DNA from: a candidate division FCPU426 bacterium
Lineage (GTDB): Bacteria; Oederibacteriota; JAAXVQ01; JAUVAV01
Direction of reading: 5' to 3'
DNA length: 64,000 nt
NCBI GenBank assembly: GCA_040756875.1
Contig: JBFLYH010000002.1
Location: 927,078 to 991,077 of the forward strand
In this document: piece by piece, positions 9,425 through 47,834 of the stretch
Layout: the number at the start of each line of letters is the position of its first letter
How positions within the stretch are numbered: the first letter of the stretch is position 1
The notes under the pieces: model-generated
What the model was told of the DNA's origin: nothing
Database searches by the model: none
Seen by the model: only the letters and a program-made list of their open reading frames with translations
Program-made: the position numbers and the translations under genes

Positions 9425-9928
9425 ATGATACGCATTGAGTCGCGGCATTTCGGAACGCTGGAAGTCGAGGAGGGGAAAATATTGCGCTTTCCCCGCGGGC
9501 TGGTGGGATTCGCGGACGCCACTTCTTTTTGCCTGCTGAGCCACCTGGAAGCGGCCCCCTACCAATGGCTGCAAGGCGTCACCCGGCCGGACCTGGCGTT
9601 TATCGTGGTGCCTATGGCGTTCATCGATCCCGCCTACCAGCTGGACCTGGGTGAAACGGAACGGCAAATCCTGCGCCTGAACCCCGGGGAGCAGCCGCTG
9701 GTGCTGGGCATCGTGACCATACCCGAGGATCCCCTGGATGCCATGGTCAATAAACTGGCGCCGCTGGTTTTAAATGAAAACACCCGCCTGGGACACCAGG
9801 TGATCAATGAATCATCGGGGTACCGCACCCGGCACGTGATCCGGGAGGAACTGGGGCCTCGCGCCAGGGAGGGCGAAAACCATGTTGGTGCTTACCCGCA
9901 AGAAAAAGCAGTCATTGATGCTCGGTGA
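9425..9928 (+). CDS. fliW: Flagellar assembly factor FliW
   Basis: SRHFG, FPRGLVGF, WLQ..(T)RPDLAF and N.LAPLVLN motifs; adjacent to csrA. Confidence 0.93.
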   Translation: MIRIESRHFGTLEVEEGKILRFPRGLVGFADATSFCLLSHLEAAPYQWLQGVTRPDLAFIVVPMAFIDPAYQLDLGETERQILRLNPGEQPLVLGIVTIPEDPLDAMVNKLAPLVLNENTRLGHQVINESSGYRTRHVIREELGPRAREGENHVGAYPQEKAVIDAR

Positions 9929-10124
9929 CGATATCGAAATCCAGGTGCTGGAGGTCAACGGCGAGCAGGTGCGCCTGGGCATCCAGGCGCCCGCGGCCTT
10001 GCGCATTCTCCGGCGCGAGCTGTACGCGGATGTCCAGGAAAAGAACCTGGAAGCCGCCATTAAATCGTCGCCCCAGGCGCTGACGGCGCATTTAAGAAAA
10101 CACCCGGAAGAGCCGAAGGCATAA
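9882..10124 (+). CDS. csrA: Translational regulator CsrA
   Basis: MLVLTRKKKQSLMLGDDIEIQVL...VRLGIQAP...RRELY, with the C-terminal N..A extension of FliW-partnered CsrAs. Confidence 0.96.
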   Translation: MLVLTRKKKQSLMLGDDIEIQVLEVNGEQVRLGIQAPAALRILRRELYADVQEKNLEAAIKSSPQALTAHLRKHPEEPKA

Positions 10125-10222
10125 AGAGGAACGGTCTTAAACACCCCAACCGCATGCAGACCCGGCCTGCGACCGGCCGGCGGAGGCGAGGGACTGCAGG
10201 GCGGCCACCGGTGATTAAGATA

Positions 10223-10255
10223 CGGCAGGGATGCCGGATCATTCATCAAGGAGGA
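10223..10255 (+). promoter_or_regulatory. CsrA-binding sites in the flagellin mRNA leader
   Basis: Hairpin CGGCA-GGGA-TGCCG (10223-10236) plus CAAGGAGGA overlapping the RBS; same layout as the Bacillus hag leader. Confidence 0.75.
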
Positions 10256-10262
10256 TCTTGTC

Positions 10263-25088: not shown

Positions 25089-25104
25089 TGGCATGTTCCT
25101 TGCA
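25089..25104 (+). promoter_or_regulatory. Sigma54 promoter of the flgB operon
   Basis: TGGCAT-GTTCC-TTGCA, near-perfect -24/-12 consensus. Confidence 0.85.
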
Positions 25105-28259: not shown

Positions 28260-29285
28260 ATGCCGCTGAACGAAGAACAGACCAAAGTCAATTTGAAGAA
28301 GGTCGCGATTCTGCTGACCCTGCTGGGCCGAGACGCCGCCCAGGAGATCATCCGCCATTTTTCGACGCAAGACATCGAGCGCATCGGCAAAGAGATGGCC
28401 AAAGGCAAGGAAATCAGCCGCGCCGAGCAGGAACAGGTGCTGCAGGATTTCCTGGCGGCGCTCAAGGACCGCAATTTTCCCCTCAAGAGCGGGATGGAAT
28501 ACGTGGAACAGGTGCTGGCGCCGGCCCTGGACCCGGACCGCGCCCAGCGTTTTCTGCGCAAGATCCACAGCCCTCGGCAAATCGCGCCTTTCGAGGAACT
28601 GCAGGAAGTGGAGCCCGAGCATCTGGTGGCCGCGGTGAAGGGCGAACATCCCCAGACCGTCGCCCTGGTGCTGGCCTCTTTACCCCGCGACCTCTCCGCC
28701 AAGGTGCTCAGGCAATTGCCGCAAGCGCTGCAGTCGGAGATCGTACGGCGGATCGCGCTGCTGGACCGCCAATCGCCGGATTTAAGCACCGTGCGGGAGA
28801 TCGAACAGCGCCTGTCGGCGCGCATCAAGCAGGAGATGGAAAAGCCCGAAATGATCCGGTTGGGAGGGGCCCAAACCACGGCGGACCTCTTCAACCTGCT
28901 GGAAAAAGACCTGGCCCATCAGTTGCTCGAAGGGCTGGAGGCCAAGCACGAGGACCTGGCCGCCCAGATCAAGGTCAAGATGGTGCGCTTCGACGATTTG
29001 ACCAAGCTGACCGACATGGAAATCCAGCGCCTGCTCAAGGAAGTCGAAACCCAGGACCTGGCGCTGGCGTGCGTGAAGCTCGACCCGCAGTTGTCGGACA
29101 TGATCTTCCGCAACATGTCCCACCGCGGCGCGGAAATGCTCAAGGACGACATCGAGGTCATGCAGAACGTCAAACCCGAATCTGTGCGGGCCTCGCGGCA
29201 AAAAATCGCCGATGTCATGAGGCGGCTGGACGAGGAAGGCACGATCATCCTCAACAAGCAGAACCTGGAGGACAACCTTGTCTAA
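28260..29285 (+). CDS. fliG: Motor switch protein FliG
   Basis: KVAILL..LG, EHPQTVALVL and NMS.RGAEMLKDD motifs. Confidence 0.95.
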   Translation: MPLNEEQTKVNLKKVAILLTLLGRDAAQEIIRHFSTQDIERIGKEMAKGKEISRAEQEQVLQDFLAALKDRNFPLKSGMEYVEQVLAPALDPDRAQRFLRKIHSPRQIAPFEELQEVEPEHLVAAVKGEHPQTVALVLASLPRDLSAKVLRQLPQALQSEIVRRIALLDRQSPDLSTVREIEQRLSARIKQEMEKPEMIRLGGAQTTADLFNLLEKDLAHQLLEGLEAKHEDLAAQIKVKMVRFDDLTKLTDMEIQRLLKEVETQDLALACVKLDPQLSDMIFRNMSHRGAEMLKDDIEVMQNVKPESVRASRQKIADVMRRLDEEGTIILNKQNLEDNLV

Positions 29286-31221
29286 GATTTTGAAAGCGCC
29301 CTCTGTCAGCGCCGAAGAGCGTCTGGTGCCGGTAGGTGGAGCCTGGCGGCTAGCGGGCCACGAAGCCGGGTCCGCCGCCCAGGCCGCGCCGGCCGAGGCC
29401 GTGGAAGCGGCGGCCAGCGCGCGCGCGCGGGAAAAGGAAGCTTTTGCGCGGGGGTTGCGCGCCGGACGCGAAGAAGCCCGGGCCGCCGCCTGCGCCGAGG
29501 ACGAGGCCGTCCGGGCGGTCCTGCAGCGGTTGGAGGACGAGCTGGCCGGATACTGCCGCCGGATCGAAATCAAGGCCGGCGATCTGGTGGCGGCCATGGT
29601 GCGGCGGATCGTGGGCGCCGCCGGCGGGCTTTCGCCCGAAGTCATCCAGCACAACCTGCGCAAGCTGCTGTCCAAGCCGCATGCGCCCGGCGAAATGCTC
29701 ACGGTGCGCCTGCATCCCGAAGACTACCGCCGCCTCGCCCCGCAGGGGGAGACGGCCCTTAAAAACCTCAAGCTGCAGCCCGATCCGGAAGTGGAGCGGG
29801 GCGGGTGCCTGATGGAGAGCCAGTTCGGCCTGCTTGACGCGCGGCTGGACACGCAACTGGAGGAGCTGGAGGGCGCTTTGCGCGCGCAGCTGGCGGCCGG
29901 ACATTCGCTGACCCAGGCCGCCGCCGGCGTGGAAGGAACGCCCGAAGTCCGGGCCGAAGGCCGGGTGACCAAAATCGTGGGCACGGTGATCGAATCCCAG
30001 GGCCCCAACGTGACCGTCGGCGAACAGTGCGACATCGCGCATCCTGCGGACGGCTCCCTGCACGCCGCGGAAGTCATCGGCTTCCGCGACGCCCAGGTGC
30101 TGCTGATGCCCTTGGGAGACGCCCGGGGGCTGGGGCCGGGACACCGGGTGATCGCCCGCGGGCGGCCGTTTACGCTGCAGGTCGGCCCCAAACTGCTGGG
30201 CCGCGTGATCAATGCCATGGGGCAGGCCATCGACGGGCGGGGCGCCCTGGAAGGCAGCGAGGCGGTCAGCCTGCACGCCCAGCCCAACAACCCCATGCAG
30301 CGCCTGCCCGTGTCCGCGCCGCTGTATACCGGCATCCGCGCCATCGACGGATTGCTGACCTGCGCCAAAGGCGGGCGCATGGGCATTTTCGCCGGCAGCG
30401 GGTTGGGAAAAAGCGTGCTGCTGGGCATGATGGCCCGCCGGACCCAGGCGGACGTCAATGTGATCGCCCTGATCGGCGAACGCGGCCGGGAGGTGCGCGA
30501 ATTCGTGGAGCGCGATCTGGGCGAGGAAGGCCTGCCCCGGTCCGTGGTGGTGGCGGTGACGTCGGATGAGTCGCCGGTGCTGCGGATCCGGGGAGCGCAG
30601 CTGGCCGCAAGCCTGGCCGAATATTTCGCGCGCCAGGGCCGCGACGTGCAATTCATGATGGATTCGGTCACGCGTTTCGCCATGGCGCAGCGCGAGGTGG
30701 GCCTGGCGGCCGGCGAGCCGCCCACGACCAAGGGGTATCCGCCTTCGACGTTCGCCGCGCTGCCCAAGCTGCTGGAACGGTCCGGGAATTTCGCGGACCA
30801 GGGCACCATTACGGGTTTTTACACGGTGCTGGTCGAAGGCGACGATCACGACGAACCCGTGGCCGACCACGTGCGCAGCATCCTGGACGGCCACATCATC
30901 CTTTCGCGGGCGTTGGCAAGCCAAAACCATTTTCCGGCCATCGACGTGCTGCGCAGCATCAGCCGGCTGAGCAAGCAGGTATGCAGCCCCGAGCAGATGG
31001 CCTGGGCCGGGCGGGTGCGCGACCTGCTTGCCACCTATTACGAAGCCCAGGATTTGATCAACATCGGGGCTTATGTAGCCGGCAGCAATCCCCAGATCGA
31101 CTTGGCCTTGCGTGCGATTGGCGACCTCAAGCGGTTTTTACGCCAGGGACTGGAAGAGAGCGTGCAGCCCGAAGCCATGTGGGGCACGTTGGAAGACATT
31201 CTCAACCGCCTCGGCGGTTGA
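29278..31221 (+). CDS. fliI: Fused FliH-FliI export ATPase (single 647-aa ORF)
   Basis: N-terminal ~200 aa FliH-like (GxxxG/AxxxA helix, VRLHPED, ERGGCLMES..G.LDARL), continuous with FliI (Walker A FAGSGLGKS, LIGERGREV, MDSVTRFA, GEPPTTKGYPP). Confidence 0.9.
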   Translation: MSKILKAPSVSAEERLVPVGGAWRLAGHEAGSAAQAAPAEAVEAAASARAREKEAFARGLRAGREEARAAACAEDEAVRAVLQRLEDELAGYCRRIEIKAGDLVAAMVRRIVGAAGGLSPEVIQHNLRKLLSKPHAPGEMLTVRLHPEDYRRLAPQGETALKNLKLQPDPEVERGGCLMESQFGLLDARLDTQLEELEGALRAQLAAGHSLTQAAAGVEGTPEVRAEGRVTKIVGTVIESQGPNVTVGEQCDIAHPADGSLHAAEVIGFRDAQVLLMPLGDARGLGPGHRVIARGRPFTLQVGPKLLGRVINAMGQAIDGRGALEGSEAVSLHAQPNNPMQRLPVSAPLYTGIRAIDGLLTCAKGGRMGIFAGSGLGKSVLLGMMARRTQADVNVIALIGERGREVREFVERDLGEEGLPRSVVVAVTSDESPVLRIRGAQLAASLAEYFARQGRDVQFMMDSVTRFAMAQREVGLAAGEPPTTKGYPPSTFAALPKLLERSGNFADQGTITGFYTVLVEGDDHDEPVADHVRSILDGHIILSRALASQNHFPAIDVLRSISRLSKQVCSPEQMAWAGRVRDLLATYYEAQDLINIGAYVAGSNPQIDLALRAIGDLKRFLRQGLEESVQPEAMWGTLEDILNRLGG

Positions 31222-33547: not shown

Positions 33548-34771
33548 ATGTTACGTTCTCTCTTTACGGGCATTTCGGGATTGATCAACCATCAGACGCG
33601 CATGGACGTGGTGGGCAACAACATCGCCAACGTCAACACCACGGGGTACAAGAGCAGCCGTGTCACGTTCGGGGACATGATGTCCCAGACCCTTTCGGGC
33701 GCCAGCCCGGCCCAGGGCGGACGGGGAGGCACCAACCCCAAGCAGGTCGGCCTGGGCGTGAACCTGGCCACCATCGACAGCGTCCACATCCAGGGCGCCT
33801 TGCAAAGCACCGGGGTCATGACTGACATGTCGATCCAGGGCGACGGCTTCTTCATCCTCGGCGACGGCACGACCAACCGGTACACCCGCGACGGCAGCTT
33901 CGGCTTGGACGAAGTGGGATTTCTGGTGGAACCGGCCAACGGCCTGAAAGTGCAGGGCTGGACCGCGGTGAACGGCGTGCTGGACACCTCGCAGCCCATC
34001 GGCGACCTGCAGATTCCGGTGGCCGCGGAAATGACCGCCCTGGCCACAGCCAATGCGCAACTAGCCGGCAACCTGGACGCCGGCGCCGCGGTGGGCGATA
34101 CCTACAGCAACACGTTCATCGTCTATGACTCGCTGGGAGCCAGCCACAGCGTGAACATCACGTATACGAAGACAGCGGTGAACACCTGGGATTGGGTAGC
34201 ATCGGGCACGGGCATCGTGGTCGGTCCGGGCGTCAACCAGGGTCAGCTGACCTTCAACCCGGACGGGTCCCTGAATACCCAGAGCGGAAACCTGTCCATC
34301 GTCACGACCAACGGCTCCACCACGCCCCTGGCCATTGCGCCGAGTTTTGCGGACGTCACCCAGTTGAGCGACGTCAACACGGTCAACCTGTTCGGGCAGG
34401 ACGGCTACGCGCCCGGAACGCTGGTTTCCTTCAACATCAGCAACAGCGGCATCATCACCGGCGTGTTCGACAACGGCATCAACCAAACCCTGGGCCAGGT
34501 GGCCCTGGCGCGCTTCACCAACAACAGCGGTCTGGTGAAGGAAGGGGAGAACCTGTGGACGGAATCCGTCAACAGCGGCGTGGCCCAGGTCGGCACCGCC
34601 AACTCCGGGGCCCGAGGCGGCGTGGCGGCCGGCTCTCTGGAAATGTCCAATGTCAGCCTGGCGCAGGAATTCAGCGACATGATCATCACGCAGCGCGGGT
34701 TCCAGGCCAATTCCAGGATCATCACCACGTCGGACGAGATTTTACAGGAGTTGATCAATCTGAAGAGATGA
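33548..34771 (+). CDS. flgE: Flagellar hook protein FlgE
   Basis: GNNIANVNTTGYK, YTRDGSF and LEMSNV.LAQEF..MIITQRGFQAN motifs. Confidence 0.97.
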   Translation: MLRSLFTGISGLINHQTRMDVVGNNIANVNTTGYKSSRVTFGDMMSQTLSGASPAQGGRGGTNPKQVGLGVNLATIDSVHIQGALQSTGVMTDMSIQGDGFFILGDGTTNRYTRDGSFGLDEVGFLVEPANGLKVQGWTAVNGVLDTSQPIGDLQIPVAAEMTALATANAQLAGNLDAGAAVGDTYSNTFIVYDSLGASHSVNITYTKTAVNTWDWVASGTGIVVGPGVNQGQLTFNPDGSLNTQSGNLSIVTTNGSTTPLAIAPSFADVTQLSDVNTVNLFGQDGYAPGTLVSFNISNSGIITGVFDNGINQTLGQVALARFTNNSGLVKEGENLWTESVNSGVAQVGTANSGARGGVAAGSLEMSNVSLAQEFSDMIITQRGFQANSRIITTSDEILQELINLKR

Positions 34772-34804
34772 TCAGGCGCCACGGGGTTAATCCGGTGATT
34801 CGCA

Positions 34805-34836
34805 GCGCAGGGAACAGGTCCGCTTGTTCCCTGCGC
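34805..34836 (+). other. Strong hairpin after flgE (mRNA stabiliser or weak terminator)
   Basis: GCGCAGGGAACAGG-TCCG-CTTGTTCCCTGCGC with no U-tract. Confidence 0.55.
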
Positions 34837-34888
34837 GCGATATGCAGGTGATGAATCCTGCGGCTATGAAAAAGGCAGGTGCGCATCC

Positions 34889-35113
34889 ATGATCGAGCTG
34901 ACCAAGTTGAACGGCGACCGGTTTTACCTGAACGAAAACTGGATCGAAACCGTGGAAGCCCTGCCGGATACCACCATCACGCTGCGCTCCGGCAACAAGG
35001 TGGTGGTGCTGGAGAAGATGGACGATGTTTTCGAAAAGATGCTCGACTGGCAGGTTATTCGCGACAAAGTCGGCAAACGCAGCCCGTTGAATCCCGCTTC
35101 CCACCGGCGCTGA
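34889..35113 (+). CDS. flbD: FlbD/SwrD family flagellar protein
   Basis: MIELTKLNG..FYLN...IETVE..PDTTITL.SG; between flgE and motA. Confidence 0.93.
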   Translation: MIELTKLNGDRFYLNENWIETVEALPDTTITLRSGNKVVVLEKMDDVFEKMLDWQVIRDKVGKRSPLNPASHRR

Positions 35114-35171
35114 ACGTCCCGCAACCAACCGCTTCCCACCGGCGCCCGGGAAAGAAAGTAGCATCAGGCGT

Positions 35172-35960
35172 ATGGATCTGGCAACTGTCGGCGGACTCAT
35201 CCTGGCATGGGGATCAGTCATTTCGCTGATCTATATCGAGGGCGGCAACCTGGCCAGCTTGTGGAATTTCGGCGCCATGGTGCTGGTCGTGGGCGGCACC
35301 ATCGGCGCTACGGTCATCGGCTCCAAAATGGAGGACATCCTTAACCTGCCCAGCGTCATTCTCAAGGCGGTTTTGACCAAAACCGTGGAAGTGGGAAAAA
35401 CCATCGGCATGCTGGTCGATCTGTCGCGCACAGTGCGCAAGGAGGGGCTCCTTTCCCTGGAGCGGGCGAGCGAGAACATTCAGGACGCTTTTTTTAAGAA
35501 AGCCATACAGATCGTGGTGGACGGCTTGGACGCGGAACAAGTCCGCAACATCCTGGAAACCGATCTGGACCTGCTCGAGGAACGGCACAAACGCAGCCAG
35601 AAGATCTTCGCCACCTTGGGCGGGTTCGCCCCCACCTTGGGCATCATCGGCACCGTGCTGGGGCTGGTGCACATGCTGGCCAACATCTCTTCGCCCGACA
35701 CGATGGGACCAGCCATCGCCGCGGCGTTCATCGCCACGCTCTACGGCGTGAGCACGGCCAACCTGCTCTATTTGCCGATCGGCAACAAGCTCAAACGCGG
35801 CAGCGAGGAGGAGACGCTCGAACGCCGCATCATCCTGGAAGGCATCATCTCCATCCAGGCGGGCGACAACCCCCGGATCCTGGAGGAGAAGCTGTTGAGT
35901 TTCCTGCCGCCCAAACTGAGAGTTCAGGTGGCCAGCAAGCTCAAGGAGACCAAAAAATGA
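35172..35960 (+). CDS. motA: Stator protein MotA
   Basis: RKEGLLSLE, APTLGIIGTVLGL, A.IATLYG and GDNPR motifs. Confidence 0.96.
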   Translation: MDLATVGGLILAWGSVISLIYIEGGNLASLWNFGAMVLVVGGTIGATVIGSKMEDILNLPSVILKAVLTKTVEVGKTIGMLVDLSRTVRKEGLLSLERASENIQDAFFKKAIQIVVDGLDAEQVRNILETDLDLLEERHKRSQKIFATLGGFAPTLGIIGTVLGLVHMLANISSPDTMGPAIAAAFIATLYGVSTANLLYLPIGNKLKRGSEEETLERRIILEGIISIQAGDNPRILEEKLLSFLPPKLRVQVASKLKETKK

Positions 35961-36772
35961 GCGGGCGCAAGCACAAGGAAGAGGAAGAAAACCAGGAGCG
36001 CTGGCTTTTGACCTATGCGGACATGATCACGCTGCTGGTGGCCTTCTTCATGATGATGTATTCCATGTCCGTGCTCAACCTGGAAAAATTCAAGGCTGCG
36101 GCCATGGGCATCCGCTCCGGGTTCAACAGCCCGGCCATGGGGCTCAAGCACACGGGCGACTCGCTGCTGGAGAAAGGCGCCAGCACGCAGGTCCAGCCGA
36201 AGATCGAACTGCCCGTGGAGCCGCCGCCTTCCATGCGGACCGAAACCAGGCCGCCGCAACCGGCGCCTTCGGCGCGGCGGCAGGGCGTGCCGCCGCAGCC
36301 GACCCGCTCGGAGCGCGTGCAGCGCCTGGTCGCGGAGCTGAACCGCAGCCTGACCGGCGTGACCCGGGGCAGCGCGGCGCGGGTAACCGCGGAAAAATCG
36401 GGCGTAGCCATCGAATTGATGGGAGACCTGATCTTTTTTCCCACTGGCAGCGCCGAGCTCAGCGCGGAAGCCAGGAACATCCTTTTGGCTGTCAGCGGCG
36501 CCTTGCGGCCCCTGCCGAACGAGATTTCAGTGGAAGGCTATACAGGACATTTCGAAGCCGCGCCTTCAAACCCATTTACCAGCAGTTGGGAGTTGTCCGC
36601 GGCCCGCGCCGTGGCGGTGATTAAGTTCCTGACGGAAAAGACCAATATCAGTCCGGGCCGGATTTCCCTGACCGGTTACGGGCAATACCGCACGCGCCCC
36701 GTCGGCCCGGCGGCTGTTCCGCGGCCGAATATGCCTAATGATTTGGTGCGGATATTTATTTATCAGGATTGA
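35957..36772 (+). CDS. motB: Stator protein MotB
   Basis: ERWLLTYADMITLL (ion-binding Asp intact), F..GSA.L and WELSAARA; OmpA-like domain degenerate. Confidence 0.92.
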   Translation: MSGRKHKEEEENQERWLLTYADMITLLVAFFMMMYSMSVLNLEKFKAAAMGIRSGFNSPAMGLKHTGDSLLEKGASTQVQPKIELPVEPPPSMRTETRPPQPAPSARRQGVPPQPTRSERVQRLVAELNRSLTGVTRGSAARVTAEKSGVAIELMGDLIFFPTGSAELSAEARNILLAVSGALRPLPNEISVEGYTGHFEAAPSNPFTSSWELSAARAVAVIKFLTEKTNISPGRISLTGYGQYRTRPVGPAAVPRPNMPNDLVRIFIYQD

Positions 36773-36795
36773 TCCGTAATCCGGCAACCGGAGTC

Positions 36796-36823
36796 TAAAG
36801 TCGCATAAGTTAACAGCCGATAC
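36796..36823 (+). promoter_or_regulatory. Sigma28 promoter upstream of the repeat array
   Basis: TAAA-N16-GCCGATAC, the best match to the FliA/SigD consensus seen in the window. Confidence 0.75.
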
Positions 36824-36842
36824 TTGCTCAAGAAAAAGATGG

Positions 36843-37171
36843 CGGCTTGCGCCGCAAAAGATTCATCCCCTTCGCCATGCGCAACAGTTGGCAATGAAGC
36901 CAGGCGGAGGATGCCAGGCTCGGGGATGATATAAACAAGTTTTACGGCTTGCGCCGCAAAAGATACATCCCCTTCGCCATTGGCAATTGTTGGTTGTGAG
37001 TGCCGGCGAAAATTGACGGGCTCGGGGATGACATTCACAGGTTTTGCGGCTTGCGCCGCAAAAGATTCATCCCCTTCGCCATGCGCAACAGTTGGCAATG
37101 AAGCCAGGCGGAGGATGCCAGGCTCGGGGATGATATAAACAAGTTTTACGGCTTGCGCCGCAAAAGATTCA
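36843..37171. repeat. 102-bp tandem repeat, 3.2 units (A-B-A-partial)
   Basis: Units start at 36843, 36945, 37047 and 37149 (CGGCTTGCGCCGCAAAAGAT). Units 1 and 3 are identical; unit 2 is diverged mainly in its centre. Confidence 0.97.
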
Positions 37172-37182
37172 CCTCACGGGGT

Positions 37183-37216
37183 ACAGGGGCTTGGGAAACC
37201 AAGCCCCTGTTTTTTT
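37183..37216 (+). terminator. Rho-independent terminator
   Basis: ACAGGGGCTTGG-GAAA-CCAAGCCCCTGT-TTTTTT. Confidence 0.93.
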
Positions 37217-37238
37217 ACGCCTGTTTGGATGAACCGCC

Positions 37239-37277
37239 TGGAAGTATTTCCATACTTTGGGTTCATCCACTATGGAA
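37239..37277. promoter_or_regulatory. Candidate UAS for the sigma54 activator
   Basis: TGGAAGTATTTCCATA-N16-TATGGAA. Confidence 0.6.
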
Positions 37278-37405
37278 CCACCTACCTAGTTCTCTCCAGT
37301 CTGTGGAGCGGATGCCGCAGTCTGTCTGCAGGGAAAAAAAGCCTCAATAATTAAGCCGATATGAAATGCATTCCGCCCTTTATGGCGCCGGCTGGCCGCG
37401 AGGAT

Positions 37406-37421
37406 TGGCATGGGGTTTGCT
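37406..37421 (+). promoter_or_regulatory. Sigma54 promoter of the fliL operon
   Basis: TGGCAT-GGGGT-TTGCT. Confidence 0.85.
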
Positions 37422-37468
37422 TTCCATAGGTGAGGAGTTCACTACCTAATAGGCGGGCGAGGGAAACC

Positions 37469-38074
37469 ATGGACAAAGACAAAAATGCAAGCACTGCGAC
37501 AAACGACCCATCCCAGCAGATTAAATTGTTGCTTATCGTGGTTTTGGTGGCTGCGGTGATCGCGCCGCTGATCTCGAGCCTGGTGGTTGTCGGTTCACTG
37601 GGCGGAAAGTTGTCAAGCATAGCAGCCAAGCAAGAACCCGAGAAAGAGGAAAGCGGCGAAGAAGGTGGAGAAAGGAACGCCGAGGCGCAAAAGCCCATTA
37701 TATTTTATGAACCCATGGAGTTCCTGGTCAATTTGGCGGATACCGAGGCCAATCACTACTTGAAAACCACCGTCAGTCTGGGCGCCCGGATCGAGGAGTC
37801 CGAGGAAAAAAGCGAGGGTAAGAAAAAAGGCGGGCATGGCGGCGGACACGGCGCCAAACAGGCCGGCCCGCAGCCGGCTTTGTTCCAGACCATTAAAGCC
37901 CGCGAACCCATGATCCGCGACCTCATTATTTCGGTGATTTCCGCCTATCCCATGGCGGTGTTGGTGTCCGTGCAGGGCAAACGGGAGCTGAAGGAGGCAC
38001 TGAGCGCCCGCCTGCAACAGGAATTGGGGACCAGCGAACTGACCGTGTATTTCACATCCTTTACCCTGCAATAG
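37469..38074 (+). CDS. fliL: Basal-body protein FliL
   Basis: Single N-terminal TM; FLVNLAD, P.IRD.II, GK.ELK and VYFTSFTLQ motifs. Confidence 0.93.
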   Translation: MDKDKNASTATNDPSQQIKLLLIVVLVAAVIAPLISSLVVVGSLGGKLSSIAAKQEPEKEESGEEGGERNAEAQKPIIFYEPMEFLVNLADTEANHYLKTTVSLGARIEESEEKSEGKKKGGHGGGHGAKQAGPQPALFQTIKAREPMIRDLIISVISAYPMAVLVSVQGKRELKEALSARLQQELGTSELTVYFTSFTLQ

Positions 38075-38089
38075 AGCGGAGCCAAACGC

Positions 38090-39058
38090 ATGGCCAAGAC
38101 GAAAAGCAACGGGGACAAGAACGGCAAGACGCCGGAAAACGCCCCGGAACTCCCCGTCGGCGTCCGGCGGTACGATTTCCGGGTGGCCCGCAAGCTCAGC
38201 GGCAGCCAGCGGATGTGGCTGGGGGCGCTGCATTCGCGGTTGGCTGCGGTCATGACCAAGCAGCTGGGCGAACGCTTCCGCTGCGAGTGCGATTGCGCCT
38301 TTTTGGGGCTGGAGCAAATCCAGGGCGCCAGTTTTCCCCTTCCGGACACGGGGCCCGTGGTCACGGCCGAAATCAGCCTGCCGACCGGCACGACCCGCAT
38401 GTATTTTCTCTGGCCGCGGGAAATGATGTTCTTTTTCCTGGAGCGGCTGCTGGGCGGGTCGGGCGACGAGCTTTTCCTGGACAAAGAGCTTTCCGAATTC
38501 GAGCAGTCCGTGCTGCGGCACCTGTGCCAGGAGGTGGCGCAATGGCTGCACGCGGCCTCCGAGGCCGGCCGCATTCCGGCTGGCAGTTGCAACAGTGTGC
38601 GCGAAGGCCAGGATTCATTTGCGGAGCTGCTGCCGTACGAAATTTTGCTGACGGCCAGCTTGAATCTGAAGCTTGGAACCCGGCAAGGCAAGCTGCTGTT
38701 CATCTACCCTTATGCGCTGGTTAAATCCTGGGTCGACGAGACCGCTCCCTCCCCCGAGACCGCGGTTCCCGAGGCCCCGCCGGCGCCGACGGATCCCGCG
38801 GCAGCCGGCCTGGTTCCCGGACTGGCCCAGGCGCCCCTGCCTGTGCAGGTGCGCCTGGGTCAAACCCGGATCAAAGTGGGCGACTTCGTCAACCTGGCGG
38901 TCGGCGATTGCGTGCAACTCAACCACAGCATTCAGGAACCCTGCGAAGTCTATATCGGTGAAAAGCCGAAATTCAAGGGGCACTTGGGCCTGATCGGTCG
39001 GCAATTGGGAGTCAAACTGACCGGTTCTATCGAGGCCAATACCACGACAACCCACTGA
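38090..39058 (+). CDS. fliM: Motor switch protein FliM (lacks N-terminal CheY-binding peptide)
   Basis: YDFR, LLGG.G, LSEFE and a C-terminal SpoA domain (LAVGD); follows fliL. Confidence 0.85.
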   Translation: MAKTKSNGDKNGKTPENAPELPVGVRRYDFRVARKLSGSQRMWLGALHSRLAAVMTKQLGERFRCECDCAFLGLEQIQGASFPLPDTGPVVTAEISLPTGTTRMYFLWPREMMFFFLERLLGGSGDELFLDKELSEFEQSVLRHLCQEVAQWLHAASEAGRIPAGSCNSVREGQDSFAELLPYEILLTASLNLKLGTRQGKLLFIYPYALVKSWVDETAPSPETAVPEAPPAPTDPAAAGLVPGLAQAPLPVQVRLGQTRIKVGDFVNLAVGDCVQLNHSIQEPCEVYIGEKPKFKGHLGLIGRQLGVKLTGSIEANTTTTH

Positions 39059-45174: not shown

Positions 45175-46662
45175 ATGGAACGGACGAAACGCCTGAAGAT
45201 CGTGGCCATCGACGACGAGCCGGAGATTTGCTGGCTGTTGACCCGCATTCTCGAGGAGGAGGGGCACCTGCCGCTGGTGGCGGACAACGGCCCCGAAGGC
45301 CTGGAGCTCGTCCGGCGGGAAAATCCGGACCTGGTCTTCCTGGATTTGCGCCTCCCGGGCATGGACGGCCTGGAAGTGCTGCGCCAGATCCGCGAGTTCG
45401 ACCAGGACCTGATGGTCATCATCCTTTCGGCCTTTGAAAGCTTCGAGGCTGCGGTGCAGTCCATGAAGCTGGGCTCGTACGATTTTTTAACCAAGCCGAT
45501 CAACGTGGAGGAGATGAAGATCACCCTTAAAAACGCCCTGCGCACCAAGCGCCTGCTCAGCGAAGTGAGCCATCTGCGGCGCCGCATGGCGCAGAGCGAG
45601 GAAGCCAGCCAGCTGATCGGCTCCTGCCCGGCCATGCAGCAGCTTATCAAGCAGATCGACCTGGTGAGCCAGCACAACATCTCCGTGCTCATTCTGGGCG
45701 AAAGCGGAACGGGCAAGGAACTGGTCGCCCGGGCCGTGCATTTTAAAAGCGGACGCCGGGAAGAGCCCCTGGTGTGCATCGACTGCTCGACCATTCCCGA
45801 AAACCTGATCGAGAGCGAACTCTTCGGCTACGAGCGGGGCGCGTTCACGGGCGCGGGGGAGCGCAAAATCGGACGGCTGGAAATGGCCAACCGCGGCACC
45901 CTGTTTCTGGACGAGATCGGCAATATGTCGCCCGCCCTGCAGATCAAGCTGCTTCGCGTCATCCAGGAGCGCACGCTGGTGCGCCTGGGCGGCAAGACTG
46001 CCGTGGCCATCGACATCCGCCTGATCACGGCCACCAACCAGGACCTGCGCCAGGGCATCAGCGCGGGCACGTTCCGGGAGGACCTGTATTACCGCCTGAA
46101 TGAATACGCGCTGGAGCTGCCGTCCCTGCGGGAGCGGGGCGAAGACATCCGGTTGCTCGCCAAGTATTTCCTCGACAAGTTCAACCGCGAGTTCGGCAAG
46201 TCCATCCGCGGCCTGAACCCCGCGGCCCTGGCCTGCCTGGAGGGATATCCCTGGCCGGGAAACGTGCGGGAGTTGCAGGCGGTCATGAAGCGCGCCGCGA
46301 TTCTGGCCACGGACGCCGTCCAACCGGAACACCTGCCCGAAGCCGTGACCGGACGCAACACCGCCAGCCGTCCGTCGGCGCTGCTGATTCAGACCGATTT
46401 GAACGAGATCCGCCCGATCAAAGAGGTGTCGCGGGAAGTCGTGGCCCAGATCGAACGCGAATTAATCCAGCGAGCGCTGGAACGCAGCGGAGGCAACAAA
46501 CTCAAAACCGCGCGCTGGCTGGGCATCGACTACAAGACGCTGTTCAACAAACTCAAGCAGTACCGGATAGACAACAGCGGTTGGGAGCAGGCTCCGCTCG
46601 TGCCGACGGAGGCCTGGCAACCCACGGGGCTCGACGCCGCCCCCGGAGGGGGACAGCCATGA
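45175..46662 (+). CDS. Sigma54-dependent response regulator (NtrC family), probable flagellar class activator
   Basis: Receiver (IDDE, LDLRLPGMDG), GESGTGKE, GAFTGA, FLDEIG, WPGNVREL and Fis-type HTH. Confidence 0.95.
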   Translation: MERTKRLKIVAIDDEPEICWLLTRILEEEGHLPLVADNGPEGLELVRRENPDLVFLDLRLPGMDGLEVLRQIREFDQDLMVIILSAFESFEAAVQSMKLGSYDFLTKPINVEEMKITLKNALRTKRLLSEVSHLRRRMAQSEEASQLIGSCPAMQQLIKQIDLVSQHNISVLILGESGTGKELVARAVHFKSGRREEPLVCIDCSTIPENLIESELFGYERGAFTGAGERKIGRLEMANRGTLFLDEIGNMSPALQIKLLRVIQERTLVRLGGKTAVAIDIRLITATNQDLRQGISAGTFREDLYYRLNEYALELPSLRERGEDIRLLAKYFLDKFNREFGKSIRGLNPAALACLEGYPWPGNVRELQAVMKRAAILATDAVQPEHLPEAVTGRNTASRPSALLIQTDLNEIRPIKEVSREVVAQIERELIQRALERSGGNKLKTARWLGIDYKTLFNKLKQYRIDNSGWEQAPLVPTEAWQPTGLDAAPGGGQP

Positions 46663-47054
46663 ACTGGATTTGGAATTTGTGGCGCGTGGCCATTTACTGG
46701 GGCTTGGCCCTGGTTCTGGGTTGGTGCGCGCTTTTCGGCGGCACGGTGCTGGGCTTTCTCGGGCGGGCGGCGGAAGCCATGCTTCTGCTCGGCGGCATCG
46801 CGCTGGCGGTTGTGGCCCTGGTCAACCGGTGCTGGCATCTGGCGGCGAAACCTGCTTCGATTGAACCCAAGCCTCCGGCCGCAGGGGGTGCGAAGTCCCC
46901 GGCCGTAGCGGGTGCGAAGTCCCCGGCCGTAGCGGGTGCGAAGTCCCCGGCCATAGCGGGGGCGAAGTCCCCGGCGGTCACGGGTGCTAAGCCTCAGGCG
47001 GCAACCGCCGCCAAAACGCCGGCGCTGGCCGGAACCGGACAGAAGGGAGTGTAA
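46659..47054 (+). CDS. Small two-TM hypothetical protein with a GAKSPAV(A) repeat tail
   Basis: ATG overlaps the upstream stop; two hydrophobic helices; ends 3 nt before fliA. Confidence 0.6.
   Translation: MNWIWNLWRVAIYWGLALVLGWCALFGGTVLGFLGRAAEAMLLLGGIALAVVALVNRCWHLAAKPASIEPKPPAAGGAKSPAVAGAKSPAVAGAKSPAIAGAKSPAVTGAKPQAATAAKTPALAGTGQKGV
46886..46993. repeat. 24-bp coding tandem repeat (~4.5 copies)
   Basis: GGGTGCGAAGTCCCCGGCCGTAGC-type units at 46886, 46910, 46934, 46958 and a partial at 46982. Confidence 0.92.
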
Positions 47055-47057
47055 CGC

Positions 47058-47834
47058 ATGCAGGCCGAAGAACGGCGCGATTGGGACGCGTATCAAAAAC
47101 AGGGAGACCGGCAGGCCCATGCCCGGTTGTGCGAACGTTACCTCCCTGACGTGCGCCGGCTGGTCGGCCGCATGGCCATCTACCTGGGAGACGGTGTCTT
47201 GGACCGGGAGGACCTGATCCAGGCCGGCGTGATCGGGCTGATCCAGGCGATCGACCTGTACGATCCCGAACAATCCGTGCCGTTTATTGATTACGCGCGC
47301 AAGCGCATCCGCGGCGCGGTGTACGACGAGCTGCGGGCCCTGGACGGGTACTCTTCCCGCTCCCGGCGCCAGCAGCAGAGCCTGGAACGCATCCGGAACG
47401 TGCTGCAGCAGAAACTGCTGCGGATGCCGAGCGAGGAGGAAATCGCGGAGGAGATGGGCGTCAGCCTGGACCAGCTTCACCAGCTGCAGGCCAGTCTGCC
47501 GGCCATCCACACCGAGCCGCTGGACGCGGACCATGCCGAGGAGTTAGGCGTGCAGCACGGCCCGGGCAAGATCCGCAACTGGATTCCCGGCGCGGACGGG
47601 TGGTCCATGGCGGAAAAGTTTCAATTCGTCGCCCAGCGGATCGAGACGCTGCCCGAACGGGCCCAGATCGTGCTCGGCTTGTACTATCGCGACGGTCTGA
47701 CTTTGCGCGAAATCGCCGAGGTTCTGGACCTGACCGAAGCCCGGATCTGCCAGATTCACTCTGCGGCCCTGGAGGTGCTGGAACAGCAGCTCCAGGACCT
47801 GAGCGGCGCTTTCGTGTCGGAGCTGACGAAATGA
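47058..47834 (+). CDS. fliA: Flagellar sigma factor FliA (sigma28)
   Basis: DLIQAG.IGL, YA..RIRGA.YDELR.LD and LTLREIAEVLDLTEARICQIH motifs. Confidence 0.95.
   Translation: MQAEERRDWDAYQKQGDRQAHARLCERYLPDVRRLVGRMAIYLGDGVLDREDLIQAGVIGLIQAIDLYDPEQSVPFIDYARKRIRGAVYDELRALDGYSSRSRRQQQSLERIRNVLQQKLLRMPSEEEIAEEMGVSLDQLHQLQASLPAIHTEPLDADHAEELGVQHGPGKIRNWIPGADGWSMAEKFQFVAQRIETLPERAQIVLGLYYRDGLTLREIAEVLDLTEARICQIHSAALEVLEQQLQDLSGAFVSELTK

Follow-up and report, generated by a model that had tools for sequence, protein, structure and literature searches.

The 64-kb stretch of DNA analysed here (hereafter the window) comes from a candidate division FCPU426 bacterium, a member of an uncultured groundwater lineage, and Pfam searches showed that the whole of it is a single large flagellar gene cluster, encoded almost entirely on the + strand. 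The subject of this analysis is an array of 102-nt tandem repeats that sits in the 657-nt spacer between the flagellar genes motB and fliL, and which a first, sequence-only reading had described as a stand-alone promoter-repeat-terminator unit encoding a candidate late-class flagellar regulatory RNA.

The motB-fliL spacer and its repeat array

Upstream of the spacer, a sigma54 promoter at 25089 precedes an operon that runs from a putative flgB through flgC, fliE, fliF, fliG, fliH/I, fliJ and fliK to flgD, flgE, flbD, motA and motB, with the TGA stop codon of motB at 36770–36772. On the 3′ side of the spacer lie fliL, fliM, fliN, fliO, fliP, fliQ, fliR, flhB and flhA, followed by the gene for a sigma54-activator response regulator and by fliA (47058–47834). 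As had been stated earlier, fliL has a sigma54 promoter of its own, TGGCATGGGGTTTGC (Table 1). Relatives carry a like promoter before fliL, the same ATG (here at 37469) in a gene start of the form ATGGA(C/T)AA(A/G), and the palindromes TTCCATAG/CTATGGAA, which in the window lie upstream of the fliL promoter and 3′ of the terminator that follows the array.

Tandem Repeats Finder (TRF) placed the array at 36843–37171, with a period of 102, 3.2 copies and 80% matches, bearing out the coordinates, the period and the A-B-A-partial layout of the sequence-only reading. The array begins 20 nt past a sigma28-type promoter motif and ends 12 nt before the terminator. Units A1 and A2 belong to a 123-nt run that is identical at 36842–36964 and 37046–37168. 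The 23 positions at which A and B differ are distributed unevenly: 17 of them fall within one 40-nt window (permutation p = 0.004), in keeping with the variable centre of ~38 nt reported before. As a matter of sequence comparison, this clustering does speak for constraint, in that the two unit types hardly differ in the junction hairpin (H), the linker or the closing stem.

Each unit is predicted to fold into hairpin H, a GC stem with U/A extensions, and a domain of ~65 nt closed by CAUCCCC/GGGGAUG; these domains span 36864–36928 in A1 (which also has a GGA-loop hairpin at 36898–36920) and 36966–37030 in B. The palindrome described at the unit junctions, TTTTRCGGC-TTGC-GCCGCAAAA, is present in three exact copies (36940, 37042 and 37144), with a fourth copy at ~36838 that is without the TTTT arm.

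The runs listed for 36600–37500 were three DNA runs of one groundwater study, one of which contains the stretch, and no RNA run. Sequencing depth was taken from Logan contigs of that one run, possibly the source of the assembly and thus not independent of it, and came to 59.2 for the left flank, 105.6 for the 123-nt A piece, 44.5 for the 141-nt B piece and 55.4 for the right flank. The ratio of A to B to flanks is therefore ~2:1:1, as an A-B-A array would give, and the layout is not an assembly duplicate, an explanation that the earlier reading had wished to see checked.

Table 1. Coordinates of the features discussed; positions refer to the window unless preceded by a contig label (C1 or C2).
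Feature	Position	Strand	Evidence
motB, final gene of the flgB-to-motB flagellar operon	35957..36772	+	Pfam MotB_plug 2e-19, OmpA 2.4e-13
sigma28-type promoter motif TAAAGTCG-N12-GCCGATAC	36796..36823	+	motif match; inferred transcription start near 36830
junction hairpin H1: GC stem, loop TTGC, without 5′ TTTT arm	36838..36859	+	sequence, fold
repeat unit A1, 102 nt	36843..36944	+	TRF; fold -36.3 kcal/mol, z = -2.2
repeat unit B, 102 nt, diverged centre, without GGA hairpin	36945..37046	+	23/102 differences from A; fold z = -0.24
repeat unit A2, identical to A1; GGA-loop hairpin 37102-37124	37047..37148	+	123-nt identical run
partial fourth unit: hairpin H4 and AAAAGATTCA	37149..37171	+	TRF 3.2 copies; alignment
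intrinsic terminator, common to array and flgB-motB operon	37183..37216	+	12-pair stem, 8 G-C, GAAA loop, T run
sigma54 promoter of fliL operon, TGGCATGGGGTTTGC (TGGCAT-N5-TTGC); neighbour, outside the element	37406..37420	+	sequence match
two adjoining non-coding arrays, 67 bp x 2.9 and 65 bp x 3.5, 98-99% identical	C1:1116584-1117108		
further non-coding tandem arrays	C1:898558, C1:1040900, C1:1273194, C2:447647		

Promoter motif, terminator and predicted RNA structure

The FliA-type motif TAAA-N16-GCCGATAC that had been reported 23 nt past the motB stop is present, with TAAA at 36796–36799 and GCCGATAC at 36816–36823 (TAAAGT-N14-GCCGATAC), and is the only match to TAAA-N14-16-GCCGAT in the window; at least one such match occurred in 15 of 100 shuffles. 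The longer pattern TAAAGT-N12-14-GCCGAT, which was picked after the site had been seen, matched once in the window and in none of the 100 shuffles. Across the 3.2-Mb genome there are four matches to TAAA-N14-16-GCCGATA, one of which is the site after motB, while each of the other three lies 92–146 nt 5′ of a long open reading frame (ORF): a gene for a ClpB-like ATPase, ftsH, and a response-regulator/kinase gene that heads an operon with FlgM-like and FliA-like genes. When the -10 heptamer was permuted (630 permutations, 1341 matches, mean 2.1 each), 12% of matches were placed before long ORFs and only 3 of the 630 permuted heptamers reached three or more such placements, which argues that the GCCGATA motif marks real promoters in this organism. 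Motility genes are preceded by similar motifs—TAAAGTATCCGGTAATTTGCCGATG (TAAAGT...GCCGATG) lies 59 nt before cheA, recognised by its Pfam CheA domains, and TAAGTTTTTGGGAATTCGGACCGATG (TAAGTT...ACCGATG) lies 27 nt before flgM—and the site after motB has TAAAGT and GCCGAT in common with motility-gene motifs; inspection of the region upstream of fliC showed no -10 element of the GCCGATA type. Judged by its sequence, the motif after motB is somewhat more likely than not to fire.

A second GCCGATAT occurs at 37355–37362, between the conserved activator palindromes and the fliL sigma54 promoter; its -35 distance holds only AAAA, and it is probably a chance match within an AT-rich bend region.

The motif is a good one, but the proposal that transcription from it depends on FliA is ambiguous as regards the sigma factor and the 16-nt spacer. 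The ambiguity arises because the genome encodes two FliA/WhiG sigma factors above the NCBIfam cut-off, each with a FlgM-like gene as partner. They are 37% identical to each other and score 192.7 bits (the gene in the flagellar cluster) and 250 bits (its paralogue), and the GCCGATA form of the -10 element elsewhere precedes non-flagellar genes.

The paralogue belongs to a second, non-flagellar sigma28 module on the minus strand of contig C2 at about 718,600–722,600 (locus L039 4122–7952), where a perfect TAAAGTTT-N11-GCCGATAA promoter is followed, in order, by genes for a response-regulator/histidine-kinase hybrid, a 107-aa FlgM-like protein, a sigma54 activator, the FliA/WhiG factor (272 aa) and a CheY-like receiver. 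The GCCGATAA motif also precedes the genes for the ClpB-like ATPase (C1:994992) and ftsH (C2:707411), which hints at a sigma28-type proteostasis regulon.

At the other end of the array, the terminator that had been described was found, with its stem at 37183–37210 and a run of 7 T to 37216. No other + strand terminator-like site occurs in 34500–38500, and so none lies between 34500 and 37183, and the closest flagellated relative (56% MotB identity) has a 14-pair terminator 72 nt after motB; on these grounds the terminator at 37183 closes the flgB-motB operon. The array is therefore part of the 3′ untranslated region (UTR) of that operon whether or not the promoter fires, and the ‘stand-alone’ layout was overstated: the bracket from promoter to terminator is half borrowed. 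Searches for promoters or terminators within each unit yielded nothing convincing: the junction hairpins gave weak terminator-like calls, all on the minus strand.

The predicted full-length RNA of 387 nt is stabler than shuffled sequences (z = -4.6, with 0 of 100 shuffles as stable). GGGGAUG may also pair with the CAUCCCC of the next unit across H, as happens at one junction in the full-length fold. The earlier reading had further proposed pairing between TTCGCC and GGCGRA, which is absent from the minimum-energy fold of either unit. Its statement that no protein gene follows the promoter held up, in that ORFs across the array are without a protein family match in Pfam; the ORFs after it, at 37153–37350 and 37229–37354, likewise match no Pfam family, and the next gene is fliL.

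Possible explanations: a young non-coding RNA locus or a neutral minisatellite

Our leading reading, which we put forward tentatively and from sequence, takes the array for a non-coding RNA locus of recent, lineage-specific origin that lies within the 3′ end of the flgB-motB flagellar operon. The array would be transcribed by read-through from motB, with no terminator intervening, and a second transcript, a separate RNA of ~385 nt, would start near 36830 under the control of a FliA/WhiG-type sigma factor. The parts that are near-unchanged between A and B—H, the linker AAAAGAUWCAUCCCCUUCGCCAU and GGCUCGGGGAUGA—are present three to four times; because they are repeated in this way, we propose a multi-site decoy (titrating) RNA, whose putative ligand would recognise the conserved H/linker module. 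CsrA could bind only the two GGA loops of the A units, a minority possibility. The most specific version of the proposal is a sigma28-driven, late-flagellar, modular decoy RNA in a FliW/CsrA host that lacks Hfq, serving either as the first RNA antagonist of a FliW-type CsrA (through the two GGA hairpins) or as a sponge for a factor that recognises the four-fold H/linker module; in this form we consider it unlikely.

The young non-coding RNA has a close rival in neutral tandem duplication, which is also possible and which we rate lower. Here, the array would be a minisatellite born of duplication in the 3′ UTR, with no function in trans, the sigma28-like motif would be fortuitous or inconsequential, and the hairpins would do no more than shield the motB mRNA at its 3′ end, in the manner of stem-loops of the repetitive extragenic palindromic (REP) type.

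A number of observations count against an RNA locus and towards this rival. The array has the head-to-tail copies, one pair of them identical, of a simple variable-number tandem repeat (VNTR), and because A1 and A2 are 100% identical the last duplication was very recent, as in a neutral VNTR; gene conversion could be an alternative source of the conserved blocks. Unit B alone is no stabler than shuffles, with unit A at z = -2.2. The claim that pairing is kept in the diverged unit comes down to one U-A to U-G change: compensatory double changes affect 0 of 29 consensus pairs in the three-unit fold, and the covariation term of that fold is unfavourable (+2.11). The stems themselves are invariant, and so say nothing either way on constraint, and it is the interior that differs between A and B. 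The motB operon needs the terminator regardless of the array, the promoter spacer of 16 nt is atypical (14–15 nt at five other sites examined) and a permuted heptamer finds about two matches genome-wide by chance. Six other non-coding tandem arrays with a period of at least 30 are present in the genome (Table 1), the unit of the two at C1:1116584-1117108 containing the palindrome GTTCACCCTAGG...CCTAGGGTGAAC; tandem duplication of intergenic DNA is therefore an ongoing, probably neutral, process in this genome.

No homologue came to light in any collection searched, which also tells against the RNA locus. A BLAST search of the 657-nt spacer against 60 relatives returned two 23-nt matches only (E = 0.006). 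In 100 relatives, a covariance model built on H and the closing stem reached a best foreign score of 24.8 bits, inside a 923-aa ORF (13 foreign genomes at E ≤ 1, all ≤24.8 bits), and with filters off it scored ≤10.3 bits at seven motB-fliL or fliL loci of relatives. When 185,579 species genomes were scanned for an exact 19-mer, four unrelated single matches turned up, roughly as many as chance would give; they lay in Burkholderiaceae, Nitrosopumilaceae, Chloroflexia and Acidobacteriaceae and showed no likeness to the array beyond the pattern. Plasmid and phage records gave no match to the unit. The comparison with Rfam (version 15, E up to 10) that had been suggested yielded five chance-level matches, the best being sX12 on the terminator at 23 bits against a gathering score of 106, and no family was matched by the array.

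The bearing of these absences on selection is limited. Three MotB relatives (56, 48 and 37% identity) were recovered from metagenome contigs, and the array was not found in the motB-fliL spacers of the two closest. The nearest flagellated relatives share ~55% MotB identity and have a motB-fliL spacer of ~300–350 nt without the array, and the sole other species of the genus, with a genome 100% complete, matched neither a FliL protein query nor the FlhA family PF00771. Because the nearest flagellated relative is so distant and the congener gave no FliL or FlhA match, absence of the array in relatives says little on selection. Flagella are patchy in the family, with a FliL match in 3 of 10 family genomes.

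Within its own genome, the array matched itself and otherwise gave only six chance matches of 15–24 nt (E ≥ 0.08), and the junction palindrome was not found elsewhere in the 3.2 Mb. The unit is thus confined to this array, which settles the question, raised by the sequence-only reading, of a dispersed REP or bacterial interspersed mosaic element (BIME); a miniature inverted-repeat transposable element is rejected on the same ground of a single locus.

Two points stand against a neutral minisatellite. It is improbable that chance would place a sigma28 match within this one spacer of 657 nt, in the right orientation and 20 nt ahead of the array, given an expectation of 0.17 for the shorter pattern in the window, of which intergenic DNA is a small part; and the A/B differences are clustered rather than uniform.

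Other readings, known systems and neighbouring features

Narrower functions for the array fare less well. The first of these turns on the opening block of the cluster, which reads flgF, flgG, flgA, flgI, flgM, flgN, flgK, flgL, fliW, csrA, fliC, and in which CsrA (9882–10124) scores 82.3 bits against PF02599 and lies above the NCBIfam cut-off. By gene order and sequence, fliW-csrA-fliC has the textbook layout of the FliW/CsrA/flagellin partner switch. In the fliC leader (10128–10262), GGCAGGGATGCC / GGCAGGGAUGCC is predicted to form the hairpin GGCA-GGGA-UGCC, and AAGGAGGA is found at the ribosome-binding site. Such a pair of sites is the classic two-site arrangement, as in Bacillus subtilis hag.

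The resemblance that had been pointed out between this leader hairpin and the GGA hairpin of the A units is there: both A units contain GGCGGAGGATGCC (GGCG-GAGGA-UGCC), whose loop GGA is unpaired with a probability of ~1, and each unit has a further GGAUG 15 nt downstream. An RNA mimicking the fliC-leader site could titrate CsrA late in assembly, alongside FliW. Such a CsrA decoy is nonetheless improbable, and the sponge proposed earlier looks weak, because the element that is repeated and conserved is not a CsrA site. The A-unit hairpin belongs to the variable centre, and B, in which three of its pairs are broken, does not retain it. The GGA count of 8 in 387 nt is at the shuffle mean (8.1, standard deviation 2.3; 1187 of 2000 shuffles reach 8), with four in the two loops, one in the terminator loop and three fully paired, the last being the three GGGGAUG copies (unpaired probability 0.00). 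Nor was there an Rfam match to CsrB or Rsm RNAs.

It is very improbable that the array is a structured leader or attenuator through which the sigma28-type promoter serves the fliL operon by regulated read-through, so that late-class input would join that of the sigma54 promoter. All four parts, from the promoter through array and terminator to fliL, are indeed co-linear on the + strand, and in Escherichia coli the fliL operon receives middle-class as well as sigma28 input. The terminator is strong, however (12 pairs, 7 T), no upstream segment was seen by eye to compete with either of its arms beyond 4–6 pairs, and relatives drive fliL by the sigma54 promoter alone, without such a leader.

Slighter still is the chance that the array acts as DNA, its four copies of the 22-bp palindrome TTTTGCGGC-N4-GCCGCAAAA serving as operators for a dimeric regulator 240–570 bp 5′ of the fliL sigma54 promoter. 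In favour of this, the perfect palindrome has no copy in the genome outside the array, its 102-bp spacing is near whole helical turns and two sigma54 activators are encoded nearby or elsewhere; against this, the activator palindromes of fliL that relatives share are present separately, 3′ of the terminator, and the GC palindrome is found in no relative.

Least probable of all is a coding role, whether for a 31-aa ORF from ATG 36839 or for a minus-strand 111-aa ORF at 36763–37098: although 102 is divisible by three and one minus-strand frame is stop-free across all units, neither a Pfam match nor a ribosome-binding site before ATG 36839 was found, the minus-strand frame lacks an ATG and is antisense to the cluster throughout, the A/B differences in it are mostly amino-acid-changing, and by our own estimate it is not unusual for one of six frames to stay open over two 34-codon unit types.

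Three other kinds of array were considered and rejected. In clustered regularly interspaced short palindromic repeats (CRISPR), repeats of 23–50 nt are separated by unrelated unique spacers; here, the centres of A1 and A2 are identical and those of A and B are still alike at ~23 of 40 positions. Inspection by eye also showed that the A/B differences are not adenine-specific, as regards a diversity-generating retroelement, and that GTTRRRY/RYYYAAC cores are absent, as regards an integron attC array.

Among known systems, the closest parallel is with the sigma28-dependent, UTR-derived flagellar small RNAs (sRNAs) of E. coli (PMC10578931). Like them, the candidate RNA would be short, derive from the UTR of a flagellar or neighbouring gene under a sigma28-type promoter and end at the terminator of the host operon; UhpU, too, is driven by a sigma28 promoter of its own within a 3′ region (PMC10578931). 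They differ in that no sequence or Rfam relation links them to the present candidate, which is built of tandem 102-nt modules. Hfq is among the keywords of that paper (PMC10578931), and no Hfq gene (PF17209) was matched in the present 100%-complete genome, although control genomes were matched. Predicted RNA-RNA duplexes with the 47 translation start regions of the window had best energies that overlap those of shuffled controls, and Hfq-type base pairing by this RNA is unsupported. The locus would thus be a variant, not a member, of the sigma28-dependent UTR-derived sRNAs, with tandem modules and an Hfq-less FliW/CsrA host.

With CsrB, CsrC and RsmX-Y-Z, the array shares the sequence of promoter, repeated hairpin modules and terminator, in an organism that has CsrA and with two AGGA loops. 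It differs from them in its chance-level GGA content, in a conserved element that is not a GGA hairpin, in matching no Rfam family and in a host that has FliW, a protein antagonist of CsrA.

ToxI, the RNA of type III toxin-antitoxin systems, also combines a promoter, tandem RNA repeats and a terminator. Its repeats are ~36 nt long and the toxin gene follows directly, whereas here the units measure 102 nt and the gene that comes next, fliL, has a sigma54 promoter to itself; a ToxI-like antitoxin was rejected, as the ORFs downstream of the array match no protein family. REP and BIME sequences resemble the array in being GC-rich palindromic hairpins in a 3′ UTR before a terminator, where they could stabilise the upstream mRNA, and differ from it in being dispersed in many copies.

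If the RNA is real and regulatory, sigma28 riboregulation of flagella would reach beyond the enterobacteria to a lineage without Hfq, and such an RNA would have been born by tandem duplication inside an operon 3′ UTR; were it to bind CsrA, the textbook split between FliW-controlled and sRNA-controlled CsrA would be blurred. If the array is a neutral minisatellite, it calls for caution, since a promoter-repeat-terminator layout can then arise when a duplication falls between a stray motif and the terminator of an operon.

Elsewhere in the cluster, fliC is followed by genes for glycosyl- and methyltransferases, fliD, fliS, and genes for an HDOD protein and a kinase. Between the gene for the sigma54 activator and fliA, a small, membrane-like ORF runs from ATG 46660 to 47054 and contains a coding tandem repeat of 24 bp (46875–46991, 4.9 copies) that specifies PAVAGAKS-type repeats. 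A 647-aa open frame at 29278–31221 combines a FliH domain (residues 77–196) with FliI ATPase domains (230–639); it may represent a fusion of FliH with FliI, or else a pair of genes sharing one frame that no stop interrupts. In the flgE-flbD spacer (117 nt, 34772–34888), a strong hairpin, GCAGGGAACAGGTCCGCTTGTTCCCTGC, is present without a T run and may be an mRNA-stabilising or processing stem 3′ of the hook gene.

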